Both the position numbers and the translations under genes were made by a program. A stretch of 64,000 bases of DNA, taken from the NCBI GenBank assembly GCA_963792415.1, contig CAWBVY010000001.1, forward strand, positions 343,900 to 407,899. Reading direction: 5' to 3'. Positions 5,656-36,155 of this stretch are shown here, piece by piece. Under the pieces are notes generated by a model. The model was not told the origin of the DNA. It did not search any database and worked only from the letters and a program-made list of their open reading frames with translations. Origin of the DNA: Candidatus Deferrimicrobiaceae bacterium (GTDB taxonomy: Bacteria; Desulfobacterota; Deferrimicrobia; Deferrimicrobiales; Deferrimicrobiaceae). Position 1 is the stretch's first letter, and each line of letters starts with the position of its first letter.

Positions 5656-6005
5656 TTTTACCACAGAGGCACAGAGTACGCAGAGATTTTTCCTTTTTTT
5701 CATTGTCGGTGATCCCAGTACCATCTAATAGAGCTACGGGACAAGGAGGCCGACAATGAAAAACCAATCTACAATTTCTATGAAATTAAGTGCCGGATTT
5801 TATTTATAGGCTGCAAAGCATATTCCACTGGGATCAAAGGATATGCCCCCCTTTAGGCAATAAAACACAATCTGTCGTAATCCCGGCGTCTATAGGAAAA
5901 ATTTAAAATTGAAGCGGATATCTTTATGTTTGCCGCCCTATCAACGGCAAACATAAAACAAGTACCCTCTTCTTCCTCCGTGCCTCGAGCGCAGCGGGTG
6001 GTGAA
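5656..6005. repeat. Family A element: left arm + hairpin A ... hairpin B + right arm
   Basis: taccacagaggcacagagtacgcagaga (5660-5686); ttttcattgtcgg...ccgacaatgaaaa; tttatgtttgccg..cggcaaacataaa; ctccgtgcctcgagcgcagcgggtggtgaa. Confidence 0.8.
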
Positions 6006-6020
6006 AACCTAAAGAAAGAT

Positions 6021-6222
6021 CTCACCACAGAGACACCGAGGACACAGCGAATTTTATTTTTCACCAAATCGGGAGACGACGATTTGATGAAACTTCTGTC
6101 CACAAATATCCAAATTTCACCCCAGAAGGTGAGCGGTTTTCATTGAGCGATGTCTCCTGCTCAATGAAAAAAATCTTAAACTCTCAGTGCTCTCTGTGCC
6201 TCAAGCGCAGCGGGTGGTGAAA
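6021..6222. repeat. Family A element
   Basis: ctcaccacagagacaccgaggacacag; hairpin loops gggagacgac and gatgtctcct (near reverse complements); ctctgtgcctcaagcgcagcgggtggtgaaa. Confidence 0.8.
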
Positions 6223-6260
6223 CCCTATTGATCCCCAACCTCCATTTGCGCAGCAAATAA

Positions 6261-7412
6261 ATGTCCAAAATCGTTAAAGCCCTCGAAAAGTATAAAAAAG
6301 AACACAACCTGACTTCGTCCCAGGTTTTCAATCTCGATCATGCGAAACCGCCTGAATCTGCACTGGATTCCGATGAAGACCAGTATATTCAGGAAAACGT
6401 CGATGCCGATGCGGCAAAAGAGTCGACGCAGCCGTATCCACAGCAAGAAGAAAGAATCGCTGTGCAAGTTGTTGATTCTCGCGAGGCATCGCAGCCGCAG
6501 GCTGATAGGCCTTTAAGTGAGCCGGCGAACATCGCGCCGAAACGAAGCCCCCATTTTGTTTTGGCCGATAAACAACCTGCAAAAACAGCATCCACAGAAA
6601 TCGAAAACAAAGGGAGGGTACCTCTCCTCGGTGACGAAAAGGCCAACCCGGCAACGCAACCACCAGAACTCACTTCGGCTGCCCCATCGGAGCCGACCTG
6701 CGCTTGCATGCCGTCAAATCGGTTCGCCCCGGACCTCATATCGATTGTCAATCCTCGCTGTGTCGAAGCGGAAATATTCAAGGTGCTGAGGGGTAAGATC
6801 CTTTTCCCGACTTCCGGCAAACCGCCGCGGTCCATAATGGTCACCAGCACGGTCCCGGGCGAGGGGAAATCCTTCGTTGCCGCTAATCTCGCCGTGAACA
6901 TGGCCCACAACATCGAAAAACACGTCCTGCTGGTAGACTGCGACATCCGCAGGCCGACCATTCACAAACTCTTTGGGATCGGCATGGTCAAGGGGCTGAG
7001 CGAGCACCTGTCGAATGGCAACAAGCTTCCCTCCTTGCTTCTCAAAACCGGAGTCGATAAGTTGACCATTCTGCCCAGCGGAACACCGCCCGCCAATCCA
7101 TCGGAACTCTTGTCCTCCGATAAAATGGCCGCCCTCATTGAGGAGCTCAAATCCCGCTATGATGACCGTTTTTTGATTATCGATTCCCCCCCGCCCATGC
7201 TGGGTCCGGAAACCACTGCCATCGCCAAGCAGGTCGACGGCATCATCGTGGTGATCAAGTTCGGCAGCACCCCGATGGATGCGGTCGAAGAGCTGATCGA
7301 CAACCTGGGCAAAGAAAAGATCATCGGCGCGGTCATCAACCGCTTCGATGGCCGCACCTCCAGATACTACGGCTACAAGAAATACGGGAAATATTACCGC
7401 AGCAAACCGTAG
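6261..7412 (+). CDS. Polysaccharide biosynthesis protein-tyrosine kinase (CpsD/CapB-like)
   Basis: Walker A GEGKS, LLVDCDIRRP, IIDSPP, Tyr-rich tail YYGYKKYGKYY. Confidence 0.92.
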   Translation: MSKIVKALEKYKKEHNLTSSQVFNLDHAKPPESALDSDEDQYIQENVDADAAKESTQPYPQQEERIAVQVVDSREASQPQADRPLSEPANIAPKRSPHFVLADKQPAKTASTEIENKGRVPLLGDEKANPATQPPELTSAAPSEPTCACMPSNRFAPDLISIVNPRCVEAEIFKVLRGKILFPTSGKPPRSIMVTSTVPGEGKSFVAANLAVNMAHNIEKHVLLVDCDIRRPTIHKLFGIGMVKGLSEHLSNGNKLPSLLLKTGVDKLTILPSGTPPANPSELLSSDKMAALIEELKSRYDDRFLIIDSPPPMLGPETTAIAKQVDGIIVVIKFGSTPMDAVEELIDNLGKEKIIGAVINRFDGRTSRYYGYKKYGKYYRSKP

Positions 7413-7469
7413 GTTTGTGTTTGTTGCGGGTTGTGTGTTGATTCAAGAGAAGTAAGCAGAGCAGCTGAA

Positions 7470-7982
7470 GGAATGGATTCGATTTGATGCTGAAAAGAAT
7501 TAGACAGGATAATCAGGATAAACATAAATATTCCTGGCTTTCCAGATGAAAGCCAGGAAGGCACTATCCGCCGCTTCACTCAATGATATTTTGATCTTTC
7601 GCCGAAGGCGATTGAGTTTTGCCTGTTTCATCCGGAAACAGGCAAAGCTAATAATTCAACAGATCCTGTAAATCCCGTCCAATAAAAAATCTTAAAATCG
7701 AATCCATTCCACTAAAATAAGAACTGGACAGGATAGACAAGATTGTCAGGTTAAATTTCCGGTTTCCAGCCTGCCCGCTGTGTCCTTTTTGGACTTCGGG
7801 AAGAAACCGAAAAACCAACACCCGCTTTCAGCGACAATAATATTTTTCGTATAACTGAAATGGTAGCCCTTCTCCGAAGGCGATTGAATTTTATAACTTT
7901 CTTCAGGAAAGTTATAAACAAAAAAATCCAAAAAATCCTGTAAATCCTGTCCAATAAAAAAACTTAAGATCGAATCCATTCC
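7470..7982. repeat. Family B elements, two units (7470-7710 and 7725-7982)
   Basis: Perfect 16-bp IR ggaatggattcgattt / aaatcgaatccattcc; gacaggat..caggat left arms; aatcctgtaaatcctgtccaa right arms; inner hairpins with complementary loops ttccagatgaaa / tttcatccggaa. Confidence 0.8.
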
Positions 7983-7996
7983 TCCAAGAGAAAAAT

Positions 7997-9134
7997 ATGC
8001 AAATCCCTTTCTTAGATCTCAAAGCCCAATACAAACAAATCGAGTCTGAAGTCGTCCCCGCCGTCACCGAAGCCATGGCCACCGGTATGTTCATCGGCGG
8101 CCCCCAGGTGTCCGGCTTCGAAGACGAATTCGCCCAATTTTGCGACAGCAAATACTGCATCGGCGTCGGTTCCGGCACTGACGCCCTCCGCTTCGCCCTC
8201 ATGGCGGCCGGCATCGGCCCGGGCGACGCGGTCATCACGGTCCCCAACACCTTCATCGCCACCACCGAAGCCATATCCCAGGTCGGCGCCACCCCGATCT
8301 TCGTCGACGTCGACCCCAAAACCTACACCATGGACCCCCAAAAACTAGCCGATTTACTGAAAAACAATCATAACAACAATCAAACCCACAACAATCCAAA
8401 TCGCCAAAGGCGTTATCCCCGTCCACCTCTACGGCCAGCCGGCCGACATGGACCCGATCCTCGACATTGCCCGGCAATACGACCTTGTCGTCATCGAAGA
8501 CGCCTGCCAGGCACACGGCGCCTCGTATAAAAACAGGAAGGCCGGATCACTGAGCACGGCCGGCTGCTTCAGCTTCTACCCCGGAAAGAATCTCGGCGCC
8601 TTCGGCGAAGCCGGGGCCGTCGTGACCCAGGATGAAGAGATGGCACAGAAGATGCGCATGATCCGGGATCACGGGCAGGCGCAGAAATATTTTCACGACC
8701 TCGAAGGCTACAACGGCCGCCTCGATGCGATCCAGGCCGCGGTGCTCCGCATCAAGCTGAAGCGGTTGCAGGGCTGGAACCGATCCCGCCGGAAAAATGC
8801 GGCCCTTTACACCGAACTCTTGCAGGACGTTCCCGGCATTACGCTGCCCGTGGAAGCCGAGTTCGCCGAATCGGTCTATCATCTCTACGTGATCCTTGCA
8901 GACAACCGCGATGGGCTTCAGAAGTTCCTTTCAGAAAAAGGCATCGCCACCGGCCTGCACTACCCGCTGCCGCTCCATCTGCAGAAAGCCTACGCTCACC
9001 TCGGCTATAAAAAAGGCGACTTCCCGGTCGCCGAGCACGCCGCCGAACGCCTCCTCTCGCTCCCCATGTACCCTGAGCTGACAGCAGAGCAGATCGATTA
9101 CGTCTGTTCATCTATCAGAGAATATTTTAAATAG
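7997..9134 (+). CDS. DegT/DnrJ/EryC1/StrS aminotransferase (WbpE/FdtB-like), frameshift near 8400
   Basis: GSGTDAL, VIEDACQAHG, FSFYPGKNLGAFGEAG, GYNGRLD, LSLPMYPEL. Confidence 0.92.
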
Positions 9135-9137
9135 TAA

Positions 9138-9410
9138 TTCACCACAGAGGCACAGAGAGCACAGAGAATACTTTTTTCTTTTCCTTTGCCGGTAGACAGC
9201 GGCAAAGGAAAACCAATCTGCACTTTCTACGAAATGAATTGCTGGATTGTATTCATAGGCTGCAAAGCATATTCCACTCGGATCAGCGAAAAAATAGATA
9301 ACCGTAAAGCCTGCCGCAGGCATGAGTTTATTTCATTTGCCGGTATCTCCCGGCAAATGAATGAACTAGACTCTCAGTGATCTCTGTGCCTCGAGCGAAG
9401 CGGGCGGTAA
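9138..9410. repeat. Family A element starting a few nt after the aminotransferase stop codon
   Basis: ttcaccacagaggcacagagagcacagaga ... ctctcagtgatctctgtgcctcgagcgaagcgggcggtaa, with two inner hairpins. Confidence 0.85.
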
Positions 9411-9430
9411 AAACCAAATAATAGATACTA

Positions 9431-10878: not shown

Positions 10879-11232
10879 TTCACCACAGAGGCACAGAGGG
10901 CACAGAGATATTTCCTTTTTTTCATTGTCGGTGTGAGAGGCCGACAAGCAAAAGACAACTCACTGCAATAAATACTGAATATTGTAGATCTGCGTTTATT
11001 ACTGGATTATAGTACATAGGGTATGAAAACAACTGATTGTAAGGGTCGCAAATGAACTCCCTGTGACTCATGAGTGGAAAAACATAACTTCTTCGTCTCC
11101 GTGCCTCAGCGACGGATCTTCATTTGCCGGTCCTCTCACGGCAAATGAATATAATCAAATTCTCAGTGATCTCAGTGCCTCTGTGGTTAAAAACATCATT
11201 AAAGCTTGCGCTCTCTGTGCCTCTGTGGTGAA
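10879..11232. repeat. Family A element plus an extra right arm directly upstream of GxxExxY
   Basis: ttcaccacagaggcacagagggcacagaga; loops gtgagaggcc / gtcctctcac; tctcagtgatctcagtgcctctgtggtt; ctctctgtgcctctgtggtgaa. Confidence 0.85.
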
Positions 11233-11240: not shown

Positions 11241-11611
11241 ATGGACATCAATCAGCTAACCAGCAAGATCATCGGTGCGGCAATAGAGGTTCACAAAACA
11301 ATTGGTCCTGGTTTGTTAGAGGGGATATACGAAGACTGTTTATGCATTGAGTTAGAAAGGCGAGGAATTCCTTTTGAGCGGCAGAAAAGGATTGATATCG
11401 AATATAAAGGAGTAAAATTAAATAATCAATATCGACTTGACCTTGTTGTCAATAACATGGCTGTAGTTGAACTAAAACCGTAGATGAACTCGCACCAATT
11501 CATGATGCTCAGGTATTGACCTATCTCAAATTAACGGGCTTAAAGGTTGGTTTGCTCATCAATTTTAATACTGCAATACTTAAGGACGGTATAAAGCGTT
11601 TGATAATGTAG
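11241..11611 (+). CDS. GxxExxY protein (PD-(D/E)XK nuclease-like), frameshift in an A-run near 11475
   Basis: [22 protein letters not shown]...YRLDLVV...VELK, continuing [31 protein letters not shown]...KDGIKRLIM*. Confidence 0.9.
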
Positions 11612-11631: not shown

Positions 11632-11929
11632 TTTTGCCCTATCGCCGTCTCCCGATAGGACAAAAAACAAAATATCTCTCAGTGTCCTCAGTGTCGCTGT
11701 GGTAAATAAATAGCATCTTTTCTTAATTTTTCCAGTGCTTAAAGAAGGTATAAAACGACCTGTACCGTAGATTTACGAATTGCCGGAATTTCATCGACAT
11801 AGCCTGCCGCAGGCATGAGTGTGTTTCATTTGCCGGTATCCTCGCCCCGTAGCTCCAGCAGATGGTACCGGGGTTCCGGCAAATGAAATAAATATATCCT
11901 CTTTGCTCACTCTGCGCCTCTGTGGTAAA
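11632..11929 (+). repeat. Two tandem family A right ends (hairpin B + right arm)
   Basis: ttttgccctatcgccgtctcccgataggacaaaa + ctctcagtgtcctcagtgtcgctgtggtaaa; hairpin with a 33-bp insert + ctctgcgcctctgtggtaaa. Confidence 0.8.
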
Positions 11930-13109: not shown

Positions 13110-13364
13110 ATGTATAAAATTGAATTATTGAAATCTGCAGCGAAAGAGTTTCGTGATCTGGATGATACAACAAAGAGGCGAATCACTGAAAAAATAGATA
13201 AACTGATTGAGGAACCTCGCCCTAGAGGAGTACGAAAGCTTAGAGGGCATAAAAGTCTATATAGGATTCGCGTTGGATCTTTCAGGATCGTTTATGATAT
13301 TAATGAGGAAATAGAATTGATTCAAGTAACCAGGATCAGACATCGAAGTGAAGTATATAAATAG
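13110..13364 (+). CDS. relE: RelE/ParE family toxin
   Basis: AAKEFRDL...PRPRGVRKLRG...YRIRVGSFRIVYDI...IRHRSEVY. Confidence 0.9.
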   Translation: MYKIELLKSAAKEFRDLDDTTKRRITEKIDKLIEEPRPRGVRKLRGHKSLYRIRVGSFRIVYDINEEIELIQVTRIRHRSEVYK

Positions 13365-13506
13365 GAAGAGTTTGCTATCATTTTTACCCATTGGTGCTCC
13401 GGACAAAAAAACCCATTTAATCCTGCCTGCCCTGTTAAATCATTACCATTTAACCGGGGTAGCCCCTGCAGACGGTACTGGGGTCAACGATAAATAGAAA
13501 AAATGT

Positions 13507-13742: not shown

Positions 13743-13828
13743 TTCGCCTCAGGCGATTGGATTTTTTAACTTTCGTCCGGAAAGTTAAAAACAAAAAGAA
13801 TCCTAAAAATCCAGTAAATCCTGTCCAA
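13743..13828 (+). repeat. Family B right end
   Basis: ttcgcctcaggcgattg; hairpin ttttaactttcgtccggaaagttaaaa; aatcctaaaaatccagtaaatcctgtccaa. Confidence 0.75.
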
Positions 13829-13890
13829 TAAATTCATTTCTGTGTTTTATACATTGGTTGACTGTCGTAGCATATTGAGGAGGAAACCAT

Positions 13891-14154
13891 ATGCTTATTG
13901 AATATGTCAATAAAGCAATGAGTAAGGCGGTGTACGATAAGATGGATGATGGCACTTTTAATGGAAAGATACCGCAGTGCCCCGGCGTTGTCGCCTTTGG
14001 AGAATCACTATATCAGTGCGAGCAAGAGTTGAGATCCTCTCTTGAAGGATGGTTAATTGTCAAAATAAGACATGGCGATAAACTTCCGGTGATTGGAAAA
14101 ATAAACTTAAACAAAAAAATGCCGGATATTCGAGGGGCTACCGTGAATGGCTAA
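13891..14154 (+). CDS. hicB: HicB family antitoxin
   Basis: MLIEYVNKAMSKAVYDKMDDGTFNGKIPQCPGVVAFGESLYQCEQELRSSLEGW; strong RBS. Confidence 0.85.
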   Translation: MLIEYVNKAMSKAVYDKMDDGTFNGKIPQCPGVVAFGESLYQCEQELRSSLEGWLIVKIRHGDKLPVIGKINLNKKMPDIRGATVNG

Positions 14155-14516: not shown

Positions 14517-14849
14517 TTTTTTAGAGCGACAAAGTCGCGTTTCATAAATTTTTCGCCAGAAAAATCTATTTGCGCCTTTTACCTTTCTCCATTAACCTTT
14601 TACCAGTAATTACAAATAAACTCTATCAACCTTCAGCCCGTTAAATTTGCGTAAGCAATAGTGCAACGAATTTAACTGGGCCAATAAATTTAGCCTGTGA
14701 AATTTACGATAGTAACAGTGCAACGCATTTCACTGGGCATAAATAACTCAAAAAACGCAATAAACTCTATAAACTATTACCAATGACTCCTTTACTTTTT
14801 TGAGAGCGGCAAGGCCGCGTTTCATAAATTTTTCACAGAAAAATTTATT
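14517..14849 (+). repeat. Two family F copies flanking two ccgttaaat/ctgtgaaat hairpin micro-elements and AATAAACTC-type repeats
   Basis: 14517-14570 and 14797-14849 match the F consensus; 14635-14682 and 14692-14738 are gcc(c/t)gt(t/g)aaat...attt(a/c)actgggc. Confidence 0.7.
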
Positions 14850-15224: not shown

Positions 15225-15330
15225 TGCCTCAGGTGGATGGACAATTTCAGTTTCTTCAGGAAACTGAAAATATATATTAATCCATTTAATCCCATGGATC
15301 CTGTCTAATTGATAATATAAATCGAATCCA
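15225..15330 (+). repeat. Family B right end
   Basis: Hairpin tttcagtttcttcaggaaactgaaa; aatccatttaatcccatggatcctgtctaa; aaatcgaatcca. Confidence 0.7.
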
Positions 15331-15769: not shown

Positions 15770-16480
15770 ATGGTAGACAAAGTGGGTCACAACCAAAAAA
15801 TCGTCAATGCATTTCACAGCCGAAAAGAGATTGTAGAGGACCCTGAATTTGAAATCAAACTCAGCCAATCTCTTAAAAACCAGTACAGCCGAGAAGGTCT
15901 GATTGAACTGTACGGGCGTTTTGCAGACGGAGAAGGGTATGTCGATACCCTTATGAGGCGCGCCATCTGGCGTGCTGCGGCACACCGCTTCGGCAGCGGC
16001 ATCCATATCGGGAGCGGCACGGGATTCAAGCACATCGAAACCTTTGAGATTGGAGACGGTGTTTTCATCGGGTCCCAGTCGTATATTCAGGGCAGAATCG
16101 GAGGGAAATGCACGATTGGCAGAAAGACCTGGATCGGGCCGCAGAGTTATTTCGATGCCCGTGATCTGGTGATTGGAGATCACGTCGGATGGGGACCCGG
16201 TGCAAAGGTTCTGGGGTCGGCTCACGTCGGCATTCCGGTTGATATTCCCATCATTCAGACAGATCTGGAAATCAAACCGGTGACGATCGAGCCGTGGGCG
16301 GATATCGGGGTCAATGCGGTGATACTTCCCGGAGTGACAATCGGCAAGGGCAGCCAGGTCGGCGCCGGTGCCGTGGTAACCGCCGACGTTCCCCCGTTCG
16401 CTGTTGTTGCCGGGGTTCCTGCGAAATTTATCAGGTGGCGGAAAGGAGACGATGGTAAACATCATGGAACTGAGAAATAG
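15770..16480 (+). CDS. Hexapeptide-repeat acyltransferase
   Basis: Left-handed beta-helix repeats, ILPGVTIGKGSQVGAGAVVTADVPPFAVVAGVPA. Confidence 0.88.
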   Translation: MVDKVGHNQKIVNAFHSRKEIVEDPEFEIKLSQSLKNQYSREGLIELYGRFADGEGYVDTLMRRAIWRAAAHRFGSGIHIGSGTGFKHIETFEIGDGVFIGSQSYIQGRIGGKCTIGRKTWIGPQSYFDARDLVIGDHVGWGPGAKVLGSAHVGIPVDIPIIQTDLEIKPVTIEPWADIGVNAVILPGVTIGKGSQVGAGAVVTADVPPFAVVAGVPAKFIRWRKGDDGKHHGTEK

Positions 16481-17476
16481 GAGAGCATTGATAACGGGAG
16501 GCGCGGGGCTGGTCGGGTCGCATATTGCCGATCTTCTGGTCGAAGAAGGGGTTTCCGAGATCGTTGTTTTCGATAATTTTGATCGCGGCGGCGGGAAAAT
16601 CTGGCCTGGGCCATCGAAAACGGTCCGGTCACCATCATCGAGGGGGATATCCGCGACAGAGAATTGCTGGCCCGTTCAATGCAGGGAATCGACGTGCTGT
16701 TTCACCAGGCCGCCATCAGGATCACGCAGTGCGCCCAGGAACCGCGACTGGCACTCGAAGTACTGGTTGACGGTTCCTACAATGTCGTCGAAGCCGCCTT
16801 AAATGCCAAAGTCGAGAAGGTCGTCGCCGCCTCCTCCGCATCCGTCTACGGAGCCGCCGAAGATTTCCCCACCACGGAAAAACACCACTCTTACAACAAC
16901 CGGACAATATACGGTGCGGCGAAAGTCTTTAACGAATCTTTACTGAGAAGTTTCAATGAAATGTACGGTCTCGATTATGTCGCCCTGCGGTATTTCAACA
17001 TATACGGACCGCGAATGGACGCTTTTGGCGTCTACACCGAGGTGTTTATTCGCTGGATGGAGGCCATCGAGGCGGGAAAGGCACCCATGATTTTCGGGGA
17101 CGGAACCCAGACCATGGACTTCATTCATGTAAAGGATATCGCCAGGTCCAACATTCTCGCGGCGAAGTCGGCTGTGACCGACGATGTCATCAACATTGCC
17201 AGCGGTGAGGAGACCAGCCTGACCCAGCTCGCCGAGACGCTGCTGAAAGTGATGAAAAGTGATTTGCGGCCGGAATATGGTCCCGTAAGAAAGGTCAACA
17301 ACGTTCAACGCAGGCTCGCCTATACCGACAAGGCCAGAGAACTGCTGGGCTTTGAGACAACCATATCCCTGGAGGAAGGGTTGGCCGGCATGGTGGATTG
17401 GTGGCGCGAAGTAACCGCCAATCATAAAATGGCGGATCAATCGAAGGGGCAAGAACTTAGGCAGGCTGCAAACTAA
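16452..17476 (+). CDS. NAD-dependent epimerase/dehydratase, frameshift near 16590
   Basis: ITGGAGLVGSH, ASSASVYG, YGAAK, LRYFNIYGPR. Confidence 0.9.
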
Positions 17477-17488: not shown

Positions 17489-18295
17489 GTGCGATTTTAT
17501 AAGGCCATCATACCGGCGGCCGGTTTAGGGGAACGGTTGCACCCGGTTACCCAGGTGTTACCCAAAGAGATGTTTCCGGTTGGACGCCACCCGGCGATCG
17601 AATGGGTGATCGCAGAGGCCGTGGCCGGTGGCTGCCGGGAAATAGCGGTCGTCATCAGCCCCCGCAAGCAGGTTATACGGGAATACCTCACCAAATACTG
17701 CAGCATCGCCTCGTCACTTTGCGAACTGACGTTTATTATCCAATCCGAGCCTTTGGGTTTGGGGCATGCCCTGCTGCTGGCGAAGGAATTCGCCGACGGG
17801 CAGCCGGTTGCCGTTTTGCTGCCGGATGAGCTGACTGCCGGAACCCAGCTGCCGATTCTGCAACTCAACGAAGCATTTACAGACCTTGGGTGGTGCTGTT
17901 TTTGCCCTGGGGTCGGCGGAGTCTGCCGCCAACCCCGAGCTGGTCGGAGCGGTGGCATCTGACAAAAGTCGACAGCCGAATCTATAAGGTGCAGCCGTCT
18001 CGAGCCGGCGCATCATCGGAAAAAAGACCGGACCAATTCGCGGGAATGGGGCGCTATATCCTCTCACCCGAGTGCCTCGATGACGCGGCCTCCCTGTTCA
18101 ATGAAAGACCCCACGCGCGGCCTCGACGACGGAATGATCTTCGAGTTCATGTGTACCGCCGACAAACCCGTTCACGGTTATGTCTTCGAAGGCCGGCGTT
18201 TCGATATTTCAACGGTCGCCGGCTACATAGACGCCTGGCAGACCCTGGGAAATTCGGACCCCCTTAGCCTTTTTCCTCAAATCCCGGCTATTTGA
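17489..18295 (+). CDS. Sugar-1-phosphate nucleotidyltransferase (GalU-like), frameshifted
   Basis: AIIPAAGLGERLHPVT..PKEM, QSEPLGLGHA, GRYIL, RFDIST. Confidence 0.82.
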
Positions 18296-18911: not shown

Positions 18912-19016
18912 GTTATTAATTGTTCTGTATCTATGACCTGCGACGAACAACATCCCCAGGATTTATTCTTTACCGTTTCGAAGGACCCTGGTGGGACCAC
19001 TAAAAGAAGGTGCGCT

Positions 19017-25000: not shown

Positions 25001-28000
25001 TCTCACGGTCACTTTCAGCGAGGCGATGATGGCGGCGACCATCAACACCGGGACCATCGAGCTGCGGAATGCCTCGGGCGCTCCTGGTGTCGGCCGCCGT
25101 CACCTATGACGGCGCAGCCAACCGGGCGACCGTTGACCCCCAACAGTCCCCTGGCGGTTTCTTCGGCCTATACAGCCATCGTCAAGGGCGGTGTCCGGCG
25201 GCGTGAAAGATGCGGCCGGAAATCCGTTAGGCCGCCGATTACGGCTGGGGATTCGTCAGCAGCGCGTCCAATCCGTTCGGCAATGGTCCCGGCGGACCGA
25301 TTCTGGTCGTCACCTCCGCCTCCAGCCCCTTCAGCCGCTATTACGCCGAGATTCTGCGGGCCGAAGGGCTGAACGCCTTCGCCCTGCAGCGACCTGTCAT
25401 CTGTCACGGCGACGATTCTCGACCAGTACGATGTCGTCGATCCTGGGGGAGATGCCGCTGACATCGACCCAGGTGACCATGTTCACCAACTGGGTCACCG
25501 CCGGCGGCAACCTGATCGCCATGCGGCCGGACAAGCAGCTGGCCGGGCTGCTCGGGTTGACCGACTCTCGGGACGACCCTGTCGGAAGGCTACCTGCTGG
25601 TCGACACGTCCTCCGATCCGGGGGCCGGCATCGTCGGGCAGACGATCCAGTTCCACGGCACGGCCGACCGCTACACCCTGGAGAGCGCCGCCGCCCTGGC
25701 AACGCTCTATTCGACGGCCACCACCGCGACCGCGAACCCGGCCGTCACCTTGCGCAGCGTGGGGTCGAACGGCGGGCAGGCCGCCGCCTTCACCTTCGAC
25801 CTGGCGCGCTCCATCGTCTACACCCGCCAGGGCAACCCGGCCTGGGTCGGACAGGAGCGCGACGGGATATCGCCGATCCGCTCCGATGATCTTTTCTACG
25901 GCAATGCGCCGGCGACTCCAGCCCGACTGGATCGATCTGAACAAGGTGGCCATTCCGCAGGCGGACGAGCAGCAGCGGCTGCTGGCCAACATGATCATCC
26001 GGATGAACGCCGACAAAAAGCCGCTGCCGCGGTTCTGGTACTTCCCGAACGACCATGAGGCGGTGGTCATCATGACCGGCGACGATCATGGCCATGACGG
26101 GACCGCCGGGCGCTTCAACGCCGAGATCATCAGCAGTCCTCCGGGCTGCTCGGTCGACGACTGGGAGTGCATCCGCAGCTCTTCCTACATCTATCCCGAT
26201 CCGGACGGTGCGGTGACCGACGCCGAGGCGGCGGCCTACGATGCCCACGGCTTTGAAATCGGCCTTCACGTCAACACCTTCTGCGCCGACTACACGGCCG
26301 GTATGCTCGAGACCTATTTCAGCGATCAGATGGGGGCCTGGTATGGCGTTGTTTCCGAGCCTGGCCCCGCCGGTCAGTCATCGGCAGCACTGCATCGCCT
26401 GGAGCGGTTACACGGTTCTGCCGGAGGAAGAGGCGAAATACGGCATCCGCCTGGATGTGAACTACTACTACTGGCCCCCGGACTGGATTGCAAACCGGCC
26501 GGGTTTCTTCACCGGCTCCGGCATGCCGATGCGGTTTGCGGCCCTGAACGGCACCCTCATCGATGTCTACCAGGCCACCACCCAGATGACCGACGAATCC
26601 GGGCAGACCTATCCCTACACGATAAACACGCTGCTCGACCGGGCCATCGGGCCCGAGAAGTACTACGGGGTCTTTACCGCCAACATGCACACCGATTATG
26701 CGACTCTCCGGTGATTACGATGCCCTCATCGCCTCGGCCCAGGCGCGGGGCGTGCCGGTGATTTCCGCGCGGCAGATGCTCAAATGGCTCGACGGGCGCA
26801 ACGGGTCGTCCTTCGGCTCGATCGCCTGGAACGGCACGCGTTCTCAGTTTCACGGTTTCAGCGCGGGCAGGGGGCCAACGGTCTGCAGGCGATGGTGCCG
26901 CTTGCGCCGGGGGTTACGGTGACGAACATCACCCGCAACGGCAGCGCGATCGGTTATGTGATCAAAGAGGTCAAAGGCATCAGTTATGCCGTATTTTCCG
27001 CCTCGGCCGGTTCCTATGCGGTAACGATGGCTGCCGATGTGACGCCGCCCACGGTCATCGACAATACGCCGTCGGATGGTGCGGTCGACGTGAGCACAGG
27101 GACGGCAGTGACGGTTACCTTCAGCGAGCCCATGGATGCGGCAACGGTCGAACCAGACGACCTTTGAGTTGCGCGATTCTTCGAATGCTCCAGTGTCTGC
27201 CGCTGTCTCGTACAACACCGGCACGAACACGGCAACGTTGACATCCGAACTCAAGGTTGAGCGCAGCGAAGACCTATACGGCGACCTTGCTTGGTGATGC
27301 CGGAGGGGCGGCCGACTTTAGCCGGGAACCCGCTTGCCGTTGACTACGCTTGGTCGTTTACCACCGCTGCTGCTGGAACTTCGGTTTCCTACAGCTTATG
27401 GGACGATGCAACTGATACCGTCGATTCTTGAGGACCCGGACCGAACCGCCCAGTCTCAGGGAATTGAGCTGGGCGTCAAGTTTCAGAGTGTGACGGATGG
27501 CTACATCACCGGGCTGCGGTTTTACAAGGGACCGAACAACACCGGCACCCACGTGGGCAATCTGTGGACGGCCGGCGGCACGTTGCTGGCCAGTGTGACC
27601 TTCACCAACGAGACGGCCTCGGGTGGCAGGAGATGGTTCTGCCGGCACCGGTGGCGATCACGGCCGACACGACCTACGTGGCCTCCTATCATGCGCCTGT
27701 GGGGCGTTATTCGGCCAATTCGGGTATTTCACGGCACGGGATTTCGACAATCCGCCGCTGCGGGCACTGGCGGATGGTGAAGATGGCGGCAACGGCGTTT
27801 ACCGCTATGGCGCCAGCGCGTTTCCGAACCTGACATATCAAGGCGAAAACTACTGGGTGGATGTGGTGTTTCAGGAGAGCTGGGGCCGGATACGACGCCG
27901 CCCACAGTGACACGCGACCGTGCCGGCAGCCGGTGCCGTCAATGTGAATCCTGCCGCGGTTGTCACGGTGACCTTCAGCGAGGCGATGGATGCGGCAACG

Positions 28001-28725
28001 ATCGACGACAACCACTTTTGAGCTGATGGATGCCGGCAGCATGCCTGTACCCGCCGTTGTCACTTACAACGGTTCAACTCGGACGGCGACCCTGATCCCG
28101 GCTGCGGCGCTGGCAAACACGGCGACCTACACGGCCGTTGTCAGGGGAGGGGCTGTTGGTGTGACCGATGCGGCCGGCAACCCGTTGGTCGCCAATCACA
28201 GCTGGTCGTTCACCACTGCTGCCGCTGGGACATCGGTTTCCTACAGCTTGTGGGACAATACGTTCACCCCGGCAATTCTGTCCGATTCGGATACCAGTGC
28301 GGTGGAGCTGGGGGTAAAGTTTCAGAGCAATGTCAACGGGTACATCACGGCCCTGCGGTTCTACAAGGCTGCAGCGAATACCGGCACGCACGTGGGCAAC
28401 CTGTGGACCGCCAGCGGCACGTTGTTGGCCAGTGTGACCTTCACCAACGAGACCGCCTCAGGGTGGCAGGAGATGGCACTGCCGTCACCGGTGGCGATAA
28501 CCGCCAACACGACCTACATAGCCTCCTACCACACCACCGTGGGGCGCTACTCGGCCAATTCGGCCTACTTCACTTCCGCCTATGACAATTCCCCGTTGCG
28601 GGCGCCGTCCAGCAGCGCGAGCGGCGGCAACGGCGTGTACCGGTACGGCGCAGCCAGCGCGTTTCCCCACCGACACTTGGAATGCAAGCAACTACTGGGT
28701 CGACGTGGTGTTTCAGGAGCAATGA
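19017..28725 (+). CDS. Giant secreted protein (~3,200 aa when reassembled): 5 DUF4082, ~12 Big_5/SbsA Ig-like domains, a CehA/McbA-like PHP metallohydrolase and a polysaccharide-deacetylase-like domain; many frameshifts
   Basis: Signal-like N-terminus; repeated VELGVKFQSD..GYITALRFYK..NYWVDVVF; repeated DTTPPTV..ATFSE.MDPATI..WSFTT; WYAGDMHVH (~21880); VIMTGDDHG and GFEIGLHV (~26060-26270). Confidence 0.82.
20501..21715 (+). repeat. Near-identical 342-bp tandem repeats encoding Big_5 domains
   Basis: tcagg(t/c)gatacgacgccgcc recurs at 20771, 21113 and 21456. Confidence 0.9.
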
Positions 28726-28746
28726 AATTGAATGTTCAATATCGGG

Positions 28747-29325
28747 CTCACCGCAGAGGCGCTAAGGATGCAGAGAATTTTGGATTTTTTGCTTTTCGCT
28801 GAGACGCCGAAAAGCAAAAAGCAACTTGCCCTTCGAATACAAGTGTCGACAAAAGAGTTATCAATTTAATTGGAAATAATAGATCACTTTAGATAATATC
28901 AGTCGGGATTATTCGCCAAAGGCGACAGCGTTTTTATGTTTTCCAGCGTCCCTGTCTTGTTGAATGAAAAGCAAATTCAACTGGGACCAGCGGAAAACAT
29001 AAAGAAGAATAAGCTCTGCGCTCTCTGGGTCTCTGCGGTGAATAATAAATATGTTGAGTCATACAGCCGATCCGTCTCCGGCAAACATAAAGGGCAATCC
29101 GCATTAAATGCGATAATTTCACGCCAAATTTCTAAAACTTAAAAGTTGTCACGAGCTTTAACCTCTTAGCACACAGAAGAAAGATAGAGATGCATGCAGT
29201 TTTGATTTCCTTTATCGTCCACTCAACGATAAAGGAAAAAAATATTTAAACTCTGCGCCCTCTGCGTCTCGAGCGAAGCCCCGGTGAAATGGCTTTCTGA
29301 TTTCACAGGGTAGGCGGGCGGTGAA
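28747..29325. repeat. Family A element (28747-29042) plus a tandem right end (29207-29325)
   Basis: ctcaccgcagaggcgctaaggatgcagaga; loop cgctgagacgc; ctctgcgctctctgggtctctgcggtgaa; ctctgcgccctctgcgtctcgagcgaagc[36 bp]gggcggtgaa. Confidence 0.85.
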
Positions 29326-29333: not shown

Positions 29334-29729
29334 ATGGACATCAATCAACTAACCAGTAAAATCATAGGCGCAGCAATTGAAGTTCATAAACATCTCGGTC
29401 CAGGACTCTTGGAATCGGCTTATGAAGAATGCCTTTGCCATGAATTAGAATTGCGCAGAATCAGATTCGATAGGCAGAAACCATTACCGATAGAATACAA
29501 AGGACGGAAGCTTGACTGTGGCTACAGACTCGATGTCCTGGTAGAGGATAAGGTTGTTTTAGAATTGAAATCCTGTGAAAAAATTGAACCTATCCACAAG
29601 GCACAGTTGCTGACATATCTCAAACTATCGAATATAAATTTAGGCTTACTGTTGAATTTCAATAGCATAACAATGAAAGAAGGAATAGTGCGCATCGCAA
29701 ATGAACTTCCCGATCGACAGGTAAATTAG
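29334..29729 (+). CDS. GxxExxY protein (PD-(D/E)XK nuclease-like), intact
   Basis: [25 protein letters not shown]...[18 protein letters not shown]...[10 protein letters not shown]...GLLLNFN. Confidence 0.93.
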
Positions 29730-29743: not shown

Positions 29744-29827
29744 TTTTCATTTCCGACCTCTCAACGGAAATGAAAATAATAAAACTACTCTGCGCTCTCT
29801 GCGCCTCGAGCGAAGCGGGCGGTGAAA
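29744..29827 (+). repeat. Family A right end directly downstream of GxxExxY
   Basis: ttttcatttccgacctctcaacggaaatgaaaa + ctctgcgctctctgcgcctcgagcgaagcgggcggtgaaa. Confidence 0.85.
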
Positions 29828-29848: not shown

Positions 29849-31061
29849 ATGCCCGAATCTCCCAAAATTATCCCCGTTGCCCGCCCCTGGCTCGACGAAC
29901 GCGAAGCCGAAGCCGCCAAGCGCCCCATCATGAGCGGCTGGGTCACCCAGGGGCCCGAGGTGGCGGCCTTTGAAAAGGAGTTTGCCGACTACGTCGGGGC
30001 GAAGCATGCCTGCGCGGTGTCGAGTTGCACCACGGCCCTTCATCTGGCGCTTTTGGCCGTCGGCGTGAAACCCGGCGACGAGGTGATCACCGTCAGCCAT
30101 TCCTTTATCGCCACGGCCAACAGCGTCGTGTATTGCGGCGCCAAGCCGGTTTTTGTGGATATCCAGCCGGAGACCTTCAACATCGACCCCAACCTTATCG
30201 AAAAGGTCATCACAGCCAAGACGCGCGCCATCCTGTGTGTGCACCAGATGGGGATGCCCTGCGATTTGGCGGCGATCACGGATCTTGCCAAAAAGAAGGG
30301 TCTGCCGGTCGTTGAAGATGCTGCCTGTGCCATCGGCAGCGAAATTCTGTGGAACGGGAATTGGGAAAAAATCGGAAAGCCGCAGGGCGATGCGGCCTGT
30401 TTTTCGTTTCATCCCCGCAAGGTCATCACGACCGGCGACGGCGGCATGATCACAACCGACAACGCGGAATGGGACAAGTTGTTTCGCCTCTTGCGGGTCC
30501 ACGGCATGAGCATGGACAGCTCGGCCAGGCATCGAGCCGGAAGCGTCGCGTTTGAATCCTATCTGGATCTCGGATATAATTACCGCATGACCGACATTCA
30601 GGCCGCCATCGGCCGCGAGCAGCTCAAACGCCTGCCGGAAATCGTTGCTCAGCGCCGGAAACTTGGGGATCGATACCGAAAACTCCTTGCCGACATTCCA
30701 GGGGTAATCCCTCCCTCAGAGCCCACATGGGCGCGGAGCAACTGGCAGAGCTACTGTGTGCGACTTACCGGAAGGGTGCGACCAGGTCAAGGTCATGCAG
30801 GAAATGCTCGAGGCCGGGGTTTCGACAAGACGCGGCATCATGTGCTCTCACCGGGAACCGGCCTACGCCAACGAACAGCCGTGGTCGTGCGGCAACGGAC
30901 CCGGCGATTGCGGCTGCCCGCCCGGTAGCTGTAAAAACTTACCGGAAAGCGAGAACGCCCAGGATCACAGTATCTTACTGCCGCTCTATCATCAAATGAC
31001 CGAGGAAGACCAGGACCGTGTGGTCGAGGCTCTCAAATCCGCTTGCAGTGCTAAGAAATGA
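29849..31061 (+). CDS. DegT/DnrJ aminotransferase (perosamine synthase-like), frameshift near 30765
   Basis: SGWVTQGPEV, SSCTTALH, VEDAACAIG, FSFHPRKVITTGDGG, GYNYRMTDIQAA. Confidence 0.92.
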
Positions 31062-31062
31062 A

Positions 31063-31148
31063 TTCACCACCCGCTTCGCTCGAGACGCAGAGTGCGCAGA
31101 GAAAAGAATATTCATTTTCCTTTGCCGTTGAGAGGACGGCAAAGGAAA
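31063..31148 (-). repeat. Family A left end immediately after the aminotransferase stop codon
   Basis: ttcaccacccgcttcgctcgagacgcagagtgcgcagaga is the reverse complement of the long right arm; hairpin loop gttgagaggac. Confidence 0.85.
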
Positions 31149-31528
31149 AAATCGTCTTTGCTGCAGGTTTAAGGTACTTTTGTTAATCGTTATTTAAGAC
31201 AGCTTTTTTAATATCGAAGTCGTTCAAAGCAGTATAATCAGTGTTGCCACTGTCTATCAGATTACAAAGATAAATTTTTAGAGGTTCATTGCCACTAACC
31301 CCAGTACCATCTGCCAGAGCTACCCCAGAGGAATAGGCTACACATTCCACGGGGCAGGCGCGGCAGGGAGGATGGCAATCATAAAGAATAATCTGCTTTA
31401 AACACGAGCACAACTTGACATGAAATATGTGATGCATGAGCTGTTTCACAACACCACTTGTAACAACCAAATAATATGTGTATTTTGTATTGGATAGGGA
31501 CAACAGTACGTTTTTAAAGGAGGTAATA

Positions 31529-31968: not shown

Positions 31969-32172
31969 ATGGAAACAATAGACAAAAAATTCATTGTCGA
32001 TGAGGACAATAAAAAAATAGCAGTACAAATTCCCATTGAAACCTTCGAAAAAATTGAAAAAGTTTTGGAGAATTATGCTCTATTCCAATTGATTAAAGAA
32101 AATGAAGGTGAAGAAATTTTTGGACTGACAGAGGCAAAGGCATATTATGATCGGCTGGAAAAGACACAATGA
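31969..32172 (+). CDS. Putative antitoxin; the coupled downstream toxin appears deleted
   Basis: KFIVDEDNKKIAVQIPIETFEKIE resembles the 12920 protein; the stop overlaps an ATGA (MKI...) that quickly degenerates. Confidence 0.6.
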   Translation: METIDKKFIVDEDNKKIAVQIPIETFEKIEKVLENYALFQLIKENEGEEIFGLTEAKAYYDRLEKTQ

Positions 32173-32274
32173 AAATCGCTATTTCCCTTAACTCGAAAGA
32201 TTATAGTGGCCTAAATTTCCTTAAAAAAATCGTGACTATTTGTTTTGTTCGGAAGTTCCAAAAATAGCTTCGGG

Positions 32275-32376
32275 GCCTGCCCTGCTTGCCCTGTTAAATC
32301 ATTCCCATTTAACCGGGGTAGCTCCGGAAGACGGTACCAGGGCCTGCCCCGTAGCTCCAGAAGATGGTACTGGGGT
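32275..32376 (+). repeat. Stack of nested CCTGCC micro-elements
   Basis: cctgccctgcttgccctgttaaatcattcccatttaaccggggtagctccggaagacggtaccagggcctgccccgtagctccagaagatggtactgggg. Confidence 0.75.
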
Positions 32377-32447
32377 CAACAACAAAGGAAAAAAGAAACA
32401 AAGCACTCTGTGCCCTCAGCCTGCCCAGTTAAATTGCCGGAAAATCA

Positions 32448-33130: not shown

Positions 33131-33138
33131 TTATTATT

Positions 33139-33297: not shown

Positions 33298-33382
33298 ATT
33301 CTTGCGCGAAGGTTTTTACCATGTCTCATTTAGAACCGTAAATGAATCGGAACGATATGACTATGAGTGAAAGGAAAAAGTA

Positions 33383-34387
33383 ATGGAAACATGTTTAGTG
33401 ACAGGTGGTGCAGGATTTATAGGTTCGCATGTAGCTAAAAATCTAATCGATAGCGGATATAAAGTCATCGTATTAGATGATTTGAGTGGCGGATTTATGG
33501 AAAATGTGCCATCAAAAGCAGAATTTATTGAGGGAACAATAACTGATAGGAATTTAATTAATGAAATCGTAAAAAATCAAAAAATTGATTATATTTTTCA
33601 CCTCGCGGCATACGCTGCTGAGGGCTTAAGCCATTTTATAAAAAAATTTAACTATGAGAACAATTTAATAGGCTCCATTAACCTCATTAATGCAGCTGTA
33701 AATTACAATGTCAGATGTTTTGTTTTTACATCGTCAATAGCAGTGTACGGTACTGCGCAATTACCAATGACAGAAGACATGACGCCAAAACCGGAAGATT
33801 CGTATGGAATAGCCAAATATGCAGTCGAATTAGAGCTAAAAGAAACACATGAAATGTTTGGTTTAAATTACATCATTTTTAGACCTCATAATGTTTATGG
33901 AGAGCATCAAAATATTGGAGACAGATATAGGAATGTAATTGGAATTTTCATGAACCAATTAATGAATCATAAAAATATGACAATATTTGGGGATGGGCAA
34001 CAAACAAGAGCCTTTACCTACATAGATGATGTCGCGCCAGTGATAGCAAAATCAATAGAAGTAAAGAATTCTTACAATGAAGTTTTTAACATAGGAGCTG
34101 ATAAAGCATACACTGTCAATGAACTTGCCAAAATTGTCGCAAAAAAGTTTAAGAATGAGTTTAATATAGATTATTTAGAACCAAGAAAAGAAGTCGTTCA
34201 CGCATTTTCAGATCATAAAAAATTAGAAAATATATTTGGAAACAATCCTAAAATACGGTTAGAAGAAGGTATTGAAAAAATGGCAAAATGGGCATTAAAA
34301 GTTGGGCCTAGGAAAAGCCAAAAATTTGGTAGCATTGAAATACTAAAAAATATGCCTGATAGCTGGAGGAAAGAGTTTAGCGATTAA
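33383..34387 (+). CDS. NAD-dependent epimerase/dehydratase (low GC)
   Basis: [35 protein letters not shown]. Confidence 0.92.
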   Translation: METCLVTGGAGFIGSHVAKNLIDSGYKVIVLDDLSGGFMENVPSKAEFIEGTITDRNLINEIVKNQKIDYIFHLAAYAAEGLSHFIKKFNYENNLIGSINLINAAVNYNVRCFVFTSSIAVYGTAQLPMTEDMTPKPEDSYGIAKYAVELELKETHEMFGLNYIIFRPHNVYGEHQNIGDRYRNVIGIFMNQLMNHKNMTIFGDGQQTRAFTYIDDVAPVIAKSIEVKNSYNEVFNIGADKAYTVNELAKIVAKKFKNEFNIDYLEPRKEVVHAFSDHKKLENIFGNNPKIRLEEGIEKMAKWALKVGPRKSQKFGSIEILKNMPDSWRKEFSD

Positions 34388-34444
34388 ATACAAACTATTA
34401 CAATAAGTTTAAGCTCCATACACATAACATATAGAGGGTCATCT

Positions 34445-35397
34445 ATGAAAAAACCCTTAATGCTGACAATATCGATCGTAAATACAAATAATAGAGACTT
34501 GTTAAGGAACTGTTTAATATCCATATATGAAACCGTAAAGAGATACAGGTACGAAATAATATTGGTCGATAATTGCTCGAAAGACGGTAGCGTTGAGATG
34601 GTAATGAAAAATTTTAAAGATGTCATTATCATTCAAAATAAAGGTACAATGGGATACGGATTCTGTCATAATCGTGCAATTAAAATAGCAAGAGGTAAAT
34701 ATGTTTTAATTTTTAATGAGGATATGATTGTCAAAAAAAATGCCATTGATTTAATGATTGAGAGGATTGAAAAAGATGAAACAATAGGCGTATTAGGTTG
34801 TAAACTTTTAAACCCTGATGGAAGTATACAATACTCTAGCTGCTCAAACTTTCCAAGTATAAAGCAACATATTGTTGATACATTCATACCGACGAATAGT
34901 GGCTTTAAAAATAATAAAAATAGAAGATTTTTATATTTTTTTGACTATAAAACTGAGAAGGATGTTAACATAATACAAGGTAGTTGCATGTTAATACCAA
35001 AAAAAGTTTTAGATGATGTAGGAATATTTGATACGCAGTTTTTCGTTTATTCTGAAGAAGACGATCTTTGCAAAAGAATAAAGAACGGTGGCTATAAAAT
35101 TATTATTATATCCTGATGCTGAGATCATACATATTGGCGGACAAACATCAAAAAAAATGTCACTGAAGGATGGCGTTGATAATGATAGAGAGTAAAATAA
35201 AATATTATCAAAAACATCACAGCAGGATAGAATTGACAATGTTTAAAATGATATATTTCTGTGGAAGTACTTTTAGATTAATTGGCTGGAGTGCAGCAGC
35301 CCTCACGAAAGCATACGACAAAAAATACTGTAAAGAAAACATTATTTTGAATCTCAAATCTTTAGAGTTAATAAGTAAAAAATTATTAGAAATTTAA
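34445..35397 (+). CDS. GT2 glycosyltransferase (rhamnosyltransferase-like), frameshifted near 35100-35170
   Basis: ILVDNCSKDGS, FNED, GSCMLI, FFVYSEEDDLCKR. Confidence 0.85.
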
Positions 35398-35543
35398 TAA
35401 AAAGTAAAGATAGAATATCAAACCACAATTAACAACAAACTTTCCGCGTTCACTATCATGTAGACTTATTCCAGCTGAGTTTAAGGTTTTAAAGGAATCA
35501 CTGCAGGGACGATGAAGACGCAAAGAGTTTTTGTTATAATAAT

Positions 35544-36155
35544 TTTCGCTGAAACCCGCCTTCCTCGCCTGAACCCGTCTGCTTCGCAAGCATTGCGGGC
35601 AGGCGAGAGCTATGGCGGGCAGGGGGCGGAGAGATGATTAAATTTTTTCATTGTCGGTGAGGGGCCGACAATGAAAAAGGCATCCGCCTTTTCTGATTTA
35701 CATTCTTATTGAATCGTAGTCGATAATTTTGCGTTTGATCCATTACTCATCAATTGGGCGTTAAAAGATGGAAGACAGCATAGTAAGGAATCGCAAATGA
35801 ATTGCCAGAGTGACCAAATAAACTTGTAGAGGTTTCCCTTATTCATTCCCGGTAGTCCCTGTCCAGTTGAATGCAAGCATATTCACTGGGATCACGGGAA
35901 TGAATAAATAAATAATATTCTCCTGTGCCCTCCGCGCTTCGAGCGAAGCGGGCGGTGAATAGCAAATTGGATTTACTGTTGAATTTCATACCTGTACCAT
36001 GAAACAAGGTATCTCCAGAGAAGAAAGTGTATTACCTGTGTGACCATATAAAACCTGCGGAGATTATCCATATTCATTTTCGTCCTCTCAACGAAAATGA
36101 ATATAAAAATATTACTCTCTGCGTCCTCCGCGTCTCGAGCGCAGCGGGTGGTGAA
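35544..36155. repeat. Family A element (left arm broken by CCCGCC/GGCAGG inserts) plus a tandem right end before the flippase
   Basis: ttttcattgtcggtgaggggccgacaatgaaaa; ctccgcgcttcgagcgaagcgggcggtgaa (to 35959); tattcattttcgtcctctcaacgaaaatgaata + ctctgcgtcctccgcgtctcgagcgcagcgggtggtgaa. Confidence 0.8.

Follow-up and report, generated by a model that had tools for sequence, protein, structure and literature searches.

Exact, duplication-free insertion of a 33-nucleotide tagged hairpin at preferred sites in Desulfobacterota genomes

A 64,000-nucleotide (nt) stretch of a Candidatus Deferrimicrobiaceae bacterium genome (GenBank assembly GCA_963792415.1, contig CAWBVY010000001.1, positions 343,900 to 407,899), called the window below, contains a polysaccharide-biosynthesis region in which a superfamily of very small elements, 31-36 nt each, is represented by at least 14 full or partial copies. 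The original prediction, made from the letters of this stretch alone, read them as insertions into the loops of larger repeats, and the sequences it described are present at the coordinates it named. The most clearly defined family, referred to as A, is a 33-nt unit composed of a 4-nt unpaired tag and a 29-nt hairpin with two bulged T residues and one G.G mismatch. Comparison of filled and empty sites shows base-exact insertion of the complete unit together with its tag, leaving neither a target duplication nor a footprint. The A unit is very probably a discrete mobile insertion.

Element families and hairpin structure

Members of the superfamily share one plan, in which an unpaired 4-nt tag (mostly CCTG, more rarely CTTG or TTTA) is followed by an imperfect hairpin of 27-32 nt that starts with CCC and ends with GGG(G/A). 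The base of the hairpin, CCC followed by a pyrimidine irregularity and then G-C, is kept across families, and families A, B, C and others are distinguished by their upper stems and loops. Family A, of which 32343-32375 is an intact example, is the family with the filled and empty pairs, and the window holds six A copies or modules in 64 kb. Families B and C have an A-like tag and the CCC...GGG base combined with different upper stems, and a 31-nt copy joins the same tag and base to an upper stem of its own (Table 1). The upper stems of the non-A families exhibit many compensatory arm variants. Of 136 copies, 60 have the tag CCTGCCCC, 12 have TTTACCCC and 10 have CTTGCCCC.

Covariation supports the hairpin structure. 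In an alignment of 89 distinct A copies from the window and related loci, 99.4% of cells are paired, and in the three stem pairs that the search pattern left free, double-sided changes fill 22 cells compared with 2.6 expected, a value reached by none of 500 shuffles. These changes convert C-G to G-C in 13 copies and C-G to T-A, A-T or G-C in 7; three further stem pairs are invariant, but were fixed by the pattern. In the basal stem (CCCC/GGGG), the outer C-G pair is replaced by T-A in 3 of 54 distinct stand-alone copies, including the one at 5713-5745. The minimum-energy fold of single-stranded A DNA is the same structure, at -5.5 to -5.6 kcal/mol, with modest stability (z-scores of -1.1 to -3.9). 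The cctg-like tag and imperfect hairpin ending in ggg(g/a) of the original prediction are thus borne out by covariation. An alternative fold of family A, with a GTAG tag and a 6-bp stem, was rejected, since no pair in it changes on both sides and it does no better than shuffles; the GTAG inside family A is base-paired and is not a tag.

The tag-plus-hairpin arrangement is also far more frequent than in shuffled sequence: the window contains 14 matches, whereas 30 Markov shuffles average 2.2 (range 0-8), and 106 kb of related loci contain 105, whereas 20 shuffles average 8.25, palindromic matches in the related loci being counted on both strands. The elements have no coding capacity of their own, and no Rfam family reaches its gathering score within the window.

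Filled and empty sites

Exactly 33 nt were removed from each of 112 stand-alone A copies, and the joined 30+30-nt flanks were used as the query for empty sites. Element-free, junction-spanning matches were obtained for 50 of the 112 copies. Gapless alignments account for 48 of these, the remaining two having a 1-nt gap each, away from the junction, and 30 reach E <= 1e-6, a count that leaves out one self-match (locus L083). The 50 include about six of little weight: three that are only 19 nt long, and three others that are matches to tag stacks or to the query itself. With 48 of 50 comparisons gapless after removal of exactly 33 nt, the insertions are as small, exact and free of target duplication as originally proposed.

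Both window pairs named in the original prediction are among the strong matches. Once its 33 nt are removed, the host of 5713-5745 aligns gaplessly to the empty hairpin at 35643-35678 (36 nt, 97%) and, with a 2-nt gap, to 10905-10947, while the joined flanks of 11841-11873 align gaplessly to 9318-9361 (44 nt, 93%). The host site of the C-type insertion at 29279-29315 recurs empty, in gapless alignment, six times in the window (29787-29826, 31060-31101, 18626-18655, 36117-36156, 35939-35960 and 5984-6005) and once in L012. BLAST returned no empty copies of the hosts of the elements at 28951, 35858, 7770 and 13426. Pairs within a single genome occur elsewhere too, for example between L022 and L063 of one assembly.

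After fuzzy de-duplication, the filled copies represent 59 distinct host sites. One conserved host repeat of about 60 nt is particularly informative: it is empty in L044, and in other loci it is filled at one of two positions separated by 5 nt, the element facing one way at the first (L007, L013, L019, L053, L086 and L096) and the other way at the second (L068, L082 and L101). The idea that the tag is a copied target, and hence a hidden duplication, was ruled out by eye, the last 4 nt of the flank often differing from the tag.

The same host repeat is multi-copy within single assemblies, usually with an A element. Filled copies were noted in L007, L013, L019, L048, L053, L054, L086, L091 and L096, and empty ones at L044:650-709 and L124:355-395. 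Because the repeat is multi-copy and usually filled, some A copies spread as its passengers.

Target choice and nesting

Across the 59 A sites, G occupies position -1 in 49, a pyrimidine occupies position -2 in 48, position +1 holds T in 42 cases with C in a further 13, and G occupies position +2 in 30, with binomial p values against base composition from 4e-22 to 4e-6. The target consensus is YG^T(G), the insertion falling mostly between G and T or C. For C-type elements, G precedes 25 of 36 non-redundant sites. These data bear out the site selectivity of the original prediction and narrow its specific proposal of a TC/TC junction: the latter describes five of eight hairpin-loop sites inspected by eye (TC^ at window 5713, 11841, 28951 and 35858 and in L012), the other three being G^ (window 7770, L116 and L117), and it does not hold as a general rule, which is YG^T. 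Host settings include the borders between short-tandem-repeat units, hairpin loops, and a point 9 nt into other copies.

This last setting constitutes a self-target. Elements are entered after their ninth base, CCTGCCCCG^TAG, which reads ..CCCCG^TAG.. in A and ..CCYG^T.. in C, and insertion of C-type and A copies there yields nested stacks with tags at the 5' side and modules at the 3' side. Stacks of the form tag, tag, ..., module, module are present in L001, L009, L017, L056 and L115 and in the window at 31299-31368 and 32276-32342. In 16 runs with at least two modules, the numbers of tags and modules match only approximately, being equal in 3 and differing by one in 11. The nesting that had been noticed at 13426-13483, 31299-31368 and 32275-32375 is therefore confirmed, and it follows a rule, entry at a G^T that lies 9 nt inside an existing copy; the stack at 13426-13483 is without an outer tag.

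The tag itself is correlated with the target in family A. Copies with a TTTA tag have C at +1 in 7 of 8 sites, compared with 6 of 51 for other tags (p = 3.6e-5). This correlation hints at a guide role for the tag, and shared history could also produce it.

Table 1. Micro-elements, host hairpins and empty sites in the window
Positions	Strand	Feature
5693-5765		Host hairpin, cattgtcgg family, filled
5713-5745	-	A element, 33 nt, tag CTTG, ends GGGA, stand-alone in hairpin loop
7770-7800	+	31-nt tagged hairpin of another family, tag CCTG, base CCCG/CGGG, in loop of hairpin 7752-7816
7930-7966		Empty aatcctg^tcc short-repeat site, matching the flanks of a filled site in L108
9318-9361		catttgccgg-family host hairpin and 5' flank, empty; junction between 9347 and 9348
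10905-10947		Second empty cattgtcgg-family hairpin, loop 2 nt longer
11822-11890		Host hairpin, catttgccgg family, filled
11841-11873	+	A element, 33 nt, tag CTCG, stand-alone in hairpin loop
13426-13459	+	C-type element, 34 nt, tag CCTG, arms GTTAAAT/ATTTAAC
13460-13483	+	24-nt A module (A minus its first 9 nt), directly 3' of the C-type element
14633-14681	+	49-nt hairpin, base and arms as in C-type, uncertain member
14690-14738	+	Second 49-nt hairpin; arms GTGAAAT/ATTTCAC, compensatory relative to GTTAAAT/ATTTAAC of the first
28951-28986	+	B-type element, 36 nt, tag CCTG, T..A basal pair, ends GGGA, in loop of hairpin 28926-29008
29279-29314	-	C-type element, 36 nt, tag CCTA; border G ambiguous, 29280-29315 equally valid
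29787-29826		Empty copy of the site filled at 29279-29315
31299-31368	-	Nested stack: outer tag remnant, 10 nt (31359-31368); C-type, 36 nt (31323-31358); A module, 24 nt (31299-31322)
32276-32375	+	Nested stack and tandem copy: outer tag (32276-32284), C-type (32285-32318), A module (32319-32342), full A (32343-32375)
32420-32434	+	Truncated C-type element, 5' half
35640-35680		cattgtcgg-family host hairpin, empty; junction between 35660 and 35661
35858-35891	+	B-type element, 34 nt, in loop of hairpin 35834-35908

Each of the two B-type elements interrupts a 12-13-bp palindrome. Empty aatcctg sites similar to 7930-7966 were found by eye at 13803-13835 and 15280-15312, and the two adjacent 49-nt hairpins may be long-loop relatives of the micro-elements.

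Distribution and genomic context

A single scan of a species-representative genome collection with a 24-letter degenerate pattern recovered the A element at 126 or more loci in at least 62 species-level assemblies, compared with about 9 chance matches estimated by hand from information content. Among the matches listed, the element is almost identical in all 62 assemblies, 55 of which are labelled Desulfobacter-type, Desulfatiglandales, Desulfohalobiaceae, Thermodesulfobacteriota or Deltaproteobacteria and 7 of which carry other or unspecific labels; the most found in a single assembly is at least nine loci. Many of these genomes belong to relatives of sulfate-reducing bacteria, and judged from this distribution alone the window would most probably derive from the same group. 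The plasmid and phage collections contain no match to window 32343-32375. Relative to flanking long open reading frames (ORFs), there is no orientation bias (17 vs 17 downstream, 12 vs 13 upstream) in a crude test with stop-to-stop ORFs of at least 110 amino acids.

Some copies lie within genes. The 33 nt correspond to 11 codons, and by our own reading five of the six frames of 32343-32375 are open. Three tandem copies lie in frame at L102:300-420, within the DnaA_C-like DNA-binding domain of a fragment of a gene combining Y1_Tnp and DnaA_C domains (Y1-DnaA_C); a stack at L092:636-760 occupies, in frame, the linker of a Y1 gene; and copies in L034 and L004 (at about 493-525) are inside ORFs with epimerase and glycosyltransferase domains. 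The element-encoded peptide occurs in 8 of 120 Y1 homologues (the best 120 of 6084).

Comparison with known small repeats

The closest known kinds are judged to be repetitive extragenic palindromes (REPs) and cyanobacterial small dispersed repeats (SDRs). REPs are defined in one account as 20-50-nt palindromes after a conserved tetranucleotide (PMC8266576), and the present element, a 4-nt unpaired tag with a 29-nt imperfect hairpin, falls within this general definition. It also has in common with REPs the conserved stem irregularities, the dispersed and mostly intergenic copies with some within genes, and the presence of a Y1 HUH gene of the REP-transposase type in the same genomes. Some REP families, such as GTAG-23 of T. 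roseum, are described as sitting in larger palindromes with empty targets elsewhere (PMC3733652). The CCTG, CTTG or TTTA tag places the element outside the GTAG/CGTC REP super-families (Di Nocera 2013), and its direct nested stacks are unlike the inverted doublets of REPINs (paired REPs that fold into hairpins) and bacterial interspersed mosaic elements. Unlike species-specific REPs, it is near-identical across the 62 listed assemblies, and the candidate enzyme belongs to a DnaA_C-bearing subclass for which one survey describes no known REPs (PMC6006769). In a comparison with the TIRtron, a gene bounded by inverted repeats that contain GGGGWSAS, some sites read GGGGTCAG or GGGGTGAG across the end of the element and the adjoining flank, and T[CG]A follows GGGG in only 23 of 112 cases.

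SDR5 is described as a 21-nt repeat inserted between nt 3 and 4 of GCGATCGC, that is, after G (PMC4390886, PMC13756078), and one account gives SDRs as reported only in Nostocaceae (PMC5861425). Like Nostocaceae SDR4-6, the elements are very small modules inserted with base precision at defined sites; compared by description only, they differ in phylum, in length (31-36 nt vs 21-27 nt) and in host sites. SDRs are also said, in work of Elhai et al. from 2008 (Genome Res), to nest in each other and to sit in tandem heptamer repeats.

Strand specificity, the absence of target duplication, insertion beside a short motif, irregular hairpins and a 4-nt 'guide' on the 5' side of the hairpin foot are all common to IS200/IS605 elements and their miniature derivatives. 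Those elements, however, have two different hairpin ends and a transposase gene over hundreds to thousands of bases, whereas here a single hairpin makes up the entire element. Miniature inverted-repeat transposable elements are 70-300 bp long with terminal inverted repeats and a target-site duplication, unlike these duplication-free units of 31-36 nt. Rickettsia palindromic elements and intragenic REPs, for which in-frame insertion into working genes is described (PMC3733652), share in-frame copies in genes (here L102, L092, L004 and L034); the Rickettsia elements are larger, and their mechanism and targets are not comparable. Literature searches returned nothing relevant linking REP-associated tyrosine transposases to Desulfo- taxa or Desulfobacter to extragenic palindromes, two element strings matched no relevant paper (four matches were unrelated primers), and a Beggiatoaceae heptamer-repeat paper contains no mention of Desulfo- taxa or SDRs.

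Candidate enzyme and proposed mechanism

Y1_Tnp/DnaA_C is the most recurrent gene family noticed in the flanks of the loci, with gene parts within 500 nt of an element at 5 of the 126 listed loci, in five assemblies. As regards a REPtron, in which repeats lie on both sides of their cognate tnpA_REP gene, one copy in L108 lies about 20 nt upstream of the start codon of such a Y1_Tnp/DnaA_C gene, and in L092 stacks lie inside and 3' of one. At E <= 1e-5 the family numbers 6084 proteins, and the top 120 show 88-99% identity over 94 amino acids; most of these 120 have precomputed PF01797 and PF08299 matches, and the HFH and RYKS motifs are invariant in the alignment. The C-terminus matches DnaA domain IV chains (E 5e-5), the only matches among solved structures, and the best NCBIfam match of the protein is the REP-associated tyrosine transposase model NF047646. 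Quentin et al. assign DnaA_C-bearing Y1 proteins to TnpA_REP subclass 2.1, also called TIRYT (PMC6006769), and the candidate has its two features, a Y1 HUH core and a C-terminal helix-turn-helix of the DnaA_C type. An AlphaFold model from a 24-sequence alignment is poor, with a mean predicted local distance difference test (pLDDT) score of 49 and an N-terminal domain below 50. The high conservation of the Y1-DnaA_C family mirrors that of the element.

These observations suggest that the element could move while single-stranded and folded. A tyrosine (Y1) HUH enzyme resembling the REP transposases would bind the tag and the irregular stem, cut after G and before a pyrimidine at both borders and at the target (G^C, G^T and G^Y), and rejoin the strands, so that the donor would be restored exactly and integration would proceed without loss or gain of a base. 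Since all three junctions lie after G and before a pyrimidine, an HUH enzyme could excise the unit, restore the donor and integrate it duplication-free. The E. coli TnpA_REP is described as acting on single-stranded REP DNA and as requiring an imperfect, bulged hairpin that carries a conserved 4-nt motif on its 5' side, and the equivalent 4 nt of IS200/IS605 as directing cleavage-site choice (PMC8266576). A single-strand HUH mechanism has about an even chance of being correct. The Y1_Tnp + DnaA_C protein, abundant in the same lineages, is a tentative candidate for the enzyme. It is rather unlikely, though conceivable, that the 33-nt tagged hairpin would be the complete substrate of DnaA_C-bearing Y1 enzymes, with the tag helping to pick the target (TTTA before C, CCTG before T). 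Two other potential mobilisers were rejected: no micro-element adjoins the gene for the IS110 transposase (62639-63490), and the PDDEXK_3 family is absent from the 126 listed loci.

Several points weigh against this interpretation. No Y1 gene was found in the window (91 of 96 ORFs of at least 60 amino acids scanned), 121 of the 126 listed loci have no Y1 gene within 300-500 nt, and the 5 of 126 given above is a raw count with no proper background for enrichment. The NF047646 match scores 67 bits against a family cut-off of 80, and Quentin et al. describe subclass 2.1 genes without adjacent REP-like sequences (PMC6006769). The single hairpin is unlike the two-ended IS200/IS605 substrate, and inverted doublets at a short, constant distance are missing: of seven loci with at least two strict matches, five are direct or tandem and two are inverted about 400 nt apart. 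The mechanism by which classical REPs spread is itself described as not established (PMC8266576). The tag-target correlation is strong only in family A, its p value in family C being 0.09. Most empty sites are paralogues of the filled ones and not the same locus in sister strains, and the search pattern fixed 16 positions, so that the diversity of the family is under-sampled.

Alternative explanations

Movement by another route, through a reverse-transcribed RNA copy or a non-HUH nuclease/ligase or recombinase, is unlikely but is the most serious competitor. It is consistent with the window having no transposase of the Y1 type among the scanned ORFs and with SDR5, the closest analogue, whose mechanism is described as unknown (PMC4390886, PMC13756078). 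The commonest stem variant also has T.G oppositions that would pair only in RNA (UG in 5+1+3+5 cells), yet no reverse transcriptase was found in the window ORFs or in the 150 longest of 376 flank ORFs, and the balanced orientation relative to neighbouring ORFs lacks the bias that transcript-derived elements might show. An enzyme that cuts and rejoins accounts better for junctions that are exact, free of duplication and placed after G at either end and in the target. A process without transposition, in which the 33 nt are copied from repeat to repeat during replication, by template switching or gene conversion involving hairpins and short tandem repeats, is less probable still. Nearly all hosts are slippage-prone repeats (tandem 7-9-mers or hairpin loops), tag-like 9-mers occur in tandem runs, and the numbers of tags and modules are sometimes unequal, as this process would allow. 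The hosts, however, have no mutual homology beyond a few junction bases, the borders are identical to the base in unrelated hosts, and copies occur in both orientations in one host and inside protein-coding genes.

The unusually high identity across the 62 listed assemblies and the covariation of the stem, a sign of selected structure, might instead reflect a cellular function as a protein binding site or structured RNA signal, with spread being secondary. This is improbable: the window contains no Rfam family, orientation to genes is unbiased, copies are spread over loops, arrays, other copies and reading frames, and selection for recognition by a transposase accounts for the same conservation. 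Most improbable of all is that the empty hairpins arose by deletion from ancestral hairpins of greater length, the case that the original prediction had itself raised against insertion. Deletion is compatible only with the in-window pairs taken alone; the same 33 nt in 59 unrelated contexts, together with two sites and both orientations in one host repeat, contradict it, and the loops of empty copies vary while the borders of the insert are constant.

Surroundings of the elements in the window

The polysaccharide-biosynthesis region has an uneven G+C content of 36-64%, and many of its genes, as judged by Pfam, are split by frameshifts. Overlapping ORFs with continuing Pfam matches lie at 7997-9131, 16404-17473, 17489-18264 and 19000-28800 and correspond to genes for a DegT aminotransferase, for an epimerase, for a nucleotidyl transferase and for a giant Big_5/DUF4082 repeat protein, the last broken into more than eight pieces; they are either pseudogenes or the result of assembly indel errors. 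The 19000-28800 block, with 64% G+C and 342-nt tandem coding repeats (Big_5, DUF4082) between flanks of 36-50% G+C, looks foreign to the rest of the window. The polysaccharide cluster is broken up by islands rich in repeats, and these hold small genes of the toxin-antitoxin type (13110-13361, 13891-14151 and 31969-32169: ParE, a UPF0150 family protein and a RelB-like antitoxin). The IS110-family transposase gene at 62639-63490 has no adjoining micro-element; this family often targets REPs.

Intergenic spaces form a mosaic of A/T-ended 10-13-bp hairpins, short tandem repeat arrays of the CTCTGYG type and aatcctg repeats. The CTCTGYG-type repeats end in ..CGAGCGAAGCGGGCGGTGAA, often stopping at a start codon, and contain GCGAAGC, a very stable DNA mini-hairpin. 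Copies lie at 5952-6005, 6168-6221, 9358-9411, 18603-18656, 29236-29289, 29773-29826, 35906-35959 and 36102-36155, and one of them hosts the C-type insertion at 29279-29315. A PDDEXK_3 (PD-(D/E)XK nuclease) gene at 29334-29726 and its decayed copy at 11241-11602 (60% identity, broken frame) both lie directly behind such an array. In other genomes, short-repeat arrays occur in frame inside protein-coding genes, as the 33-nt element does. Larger repeats at 5780-5836 and 9230-9285 have ends that resemble the B-type 3' half (..ATATTCCACTGGGA), without the 5' half.

Significance

The 33-nt element is among the smallest mobile DNA with a direct comparison of filled and empty sites. The dissemination of REP-type repeats has been described as unresolved (PMC8266576), and the sole reported very small mobile repeats as confined to Nostocaceae and of unknown mechanism (PMC5861425, PMC13756078). 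SDR-like behaviour is now seen in a second phylum, with a fixed 33-nt unit, dozens of filled/empty pairs and a target consensus, together with a self-targeting rule, a hairpin supported by covariation and a plausible, conserved enzyme family without known substrates. This clean system and its candidate enzyme make the mechanism testable with oligonucleotides and one purified protein. In practical terms, the elements break assemblies, insert in frame into genes and inflate the intergenic regions of Desulfobacterota. If the hairpin were the substrate of DnaA_C-bearing Y1 enzymes, it would represent the smallest defined mobile DNA, with a readable and possibly re-programmable targeting rule, and would provide a natural system for a direct test of how REP-like sequences spread.

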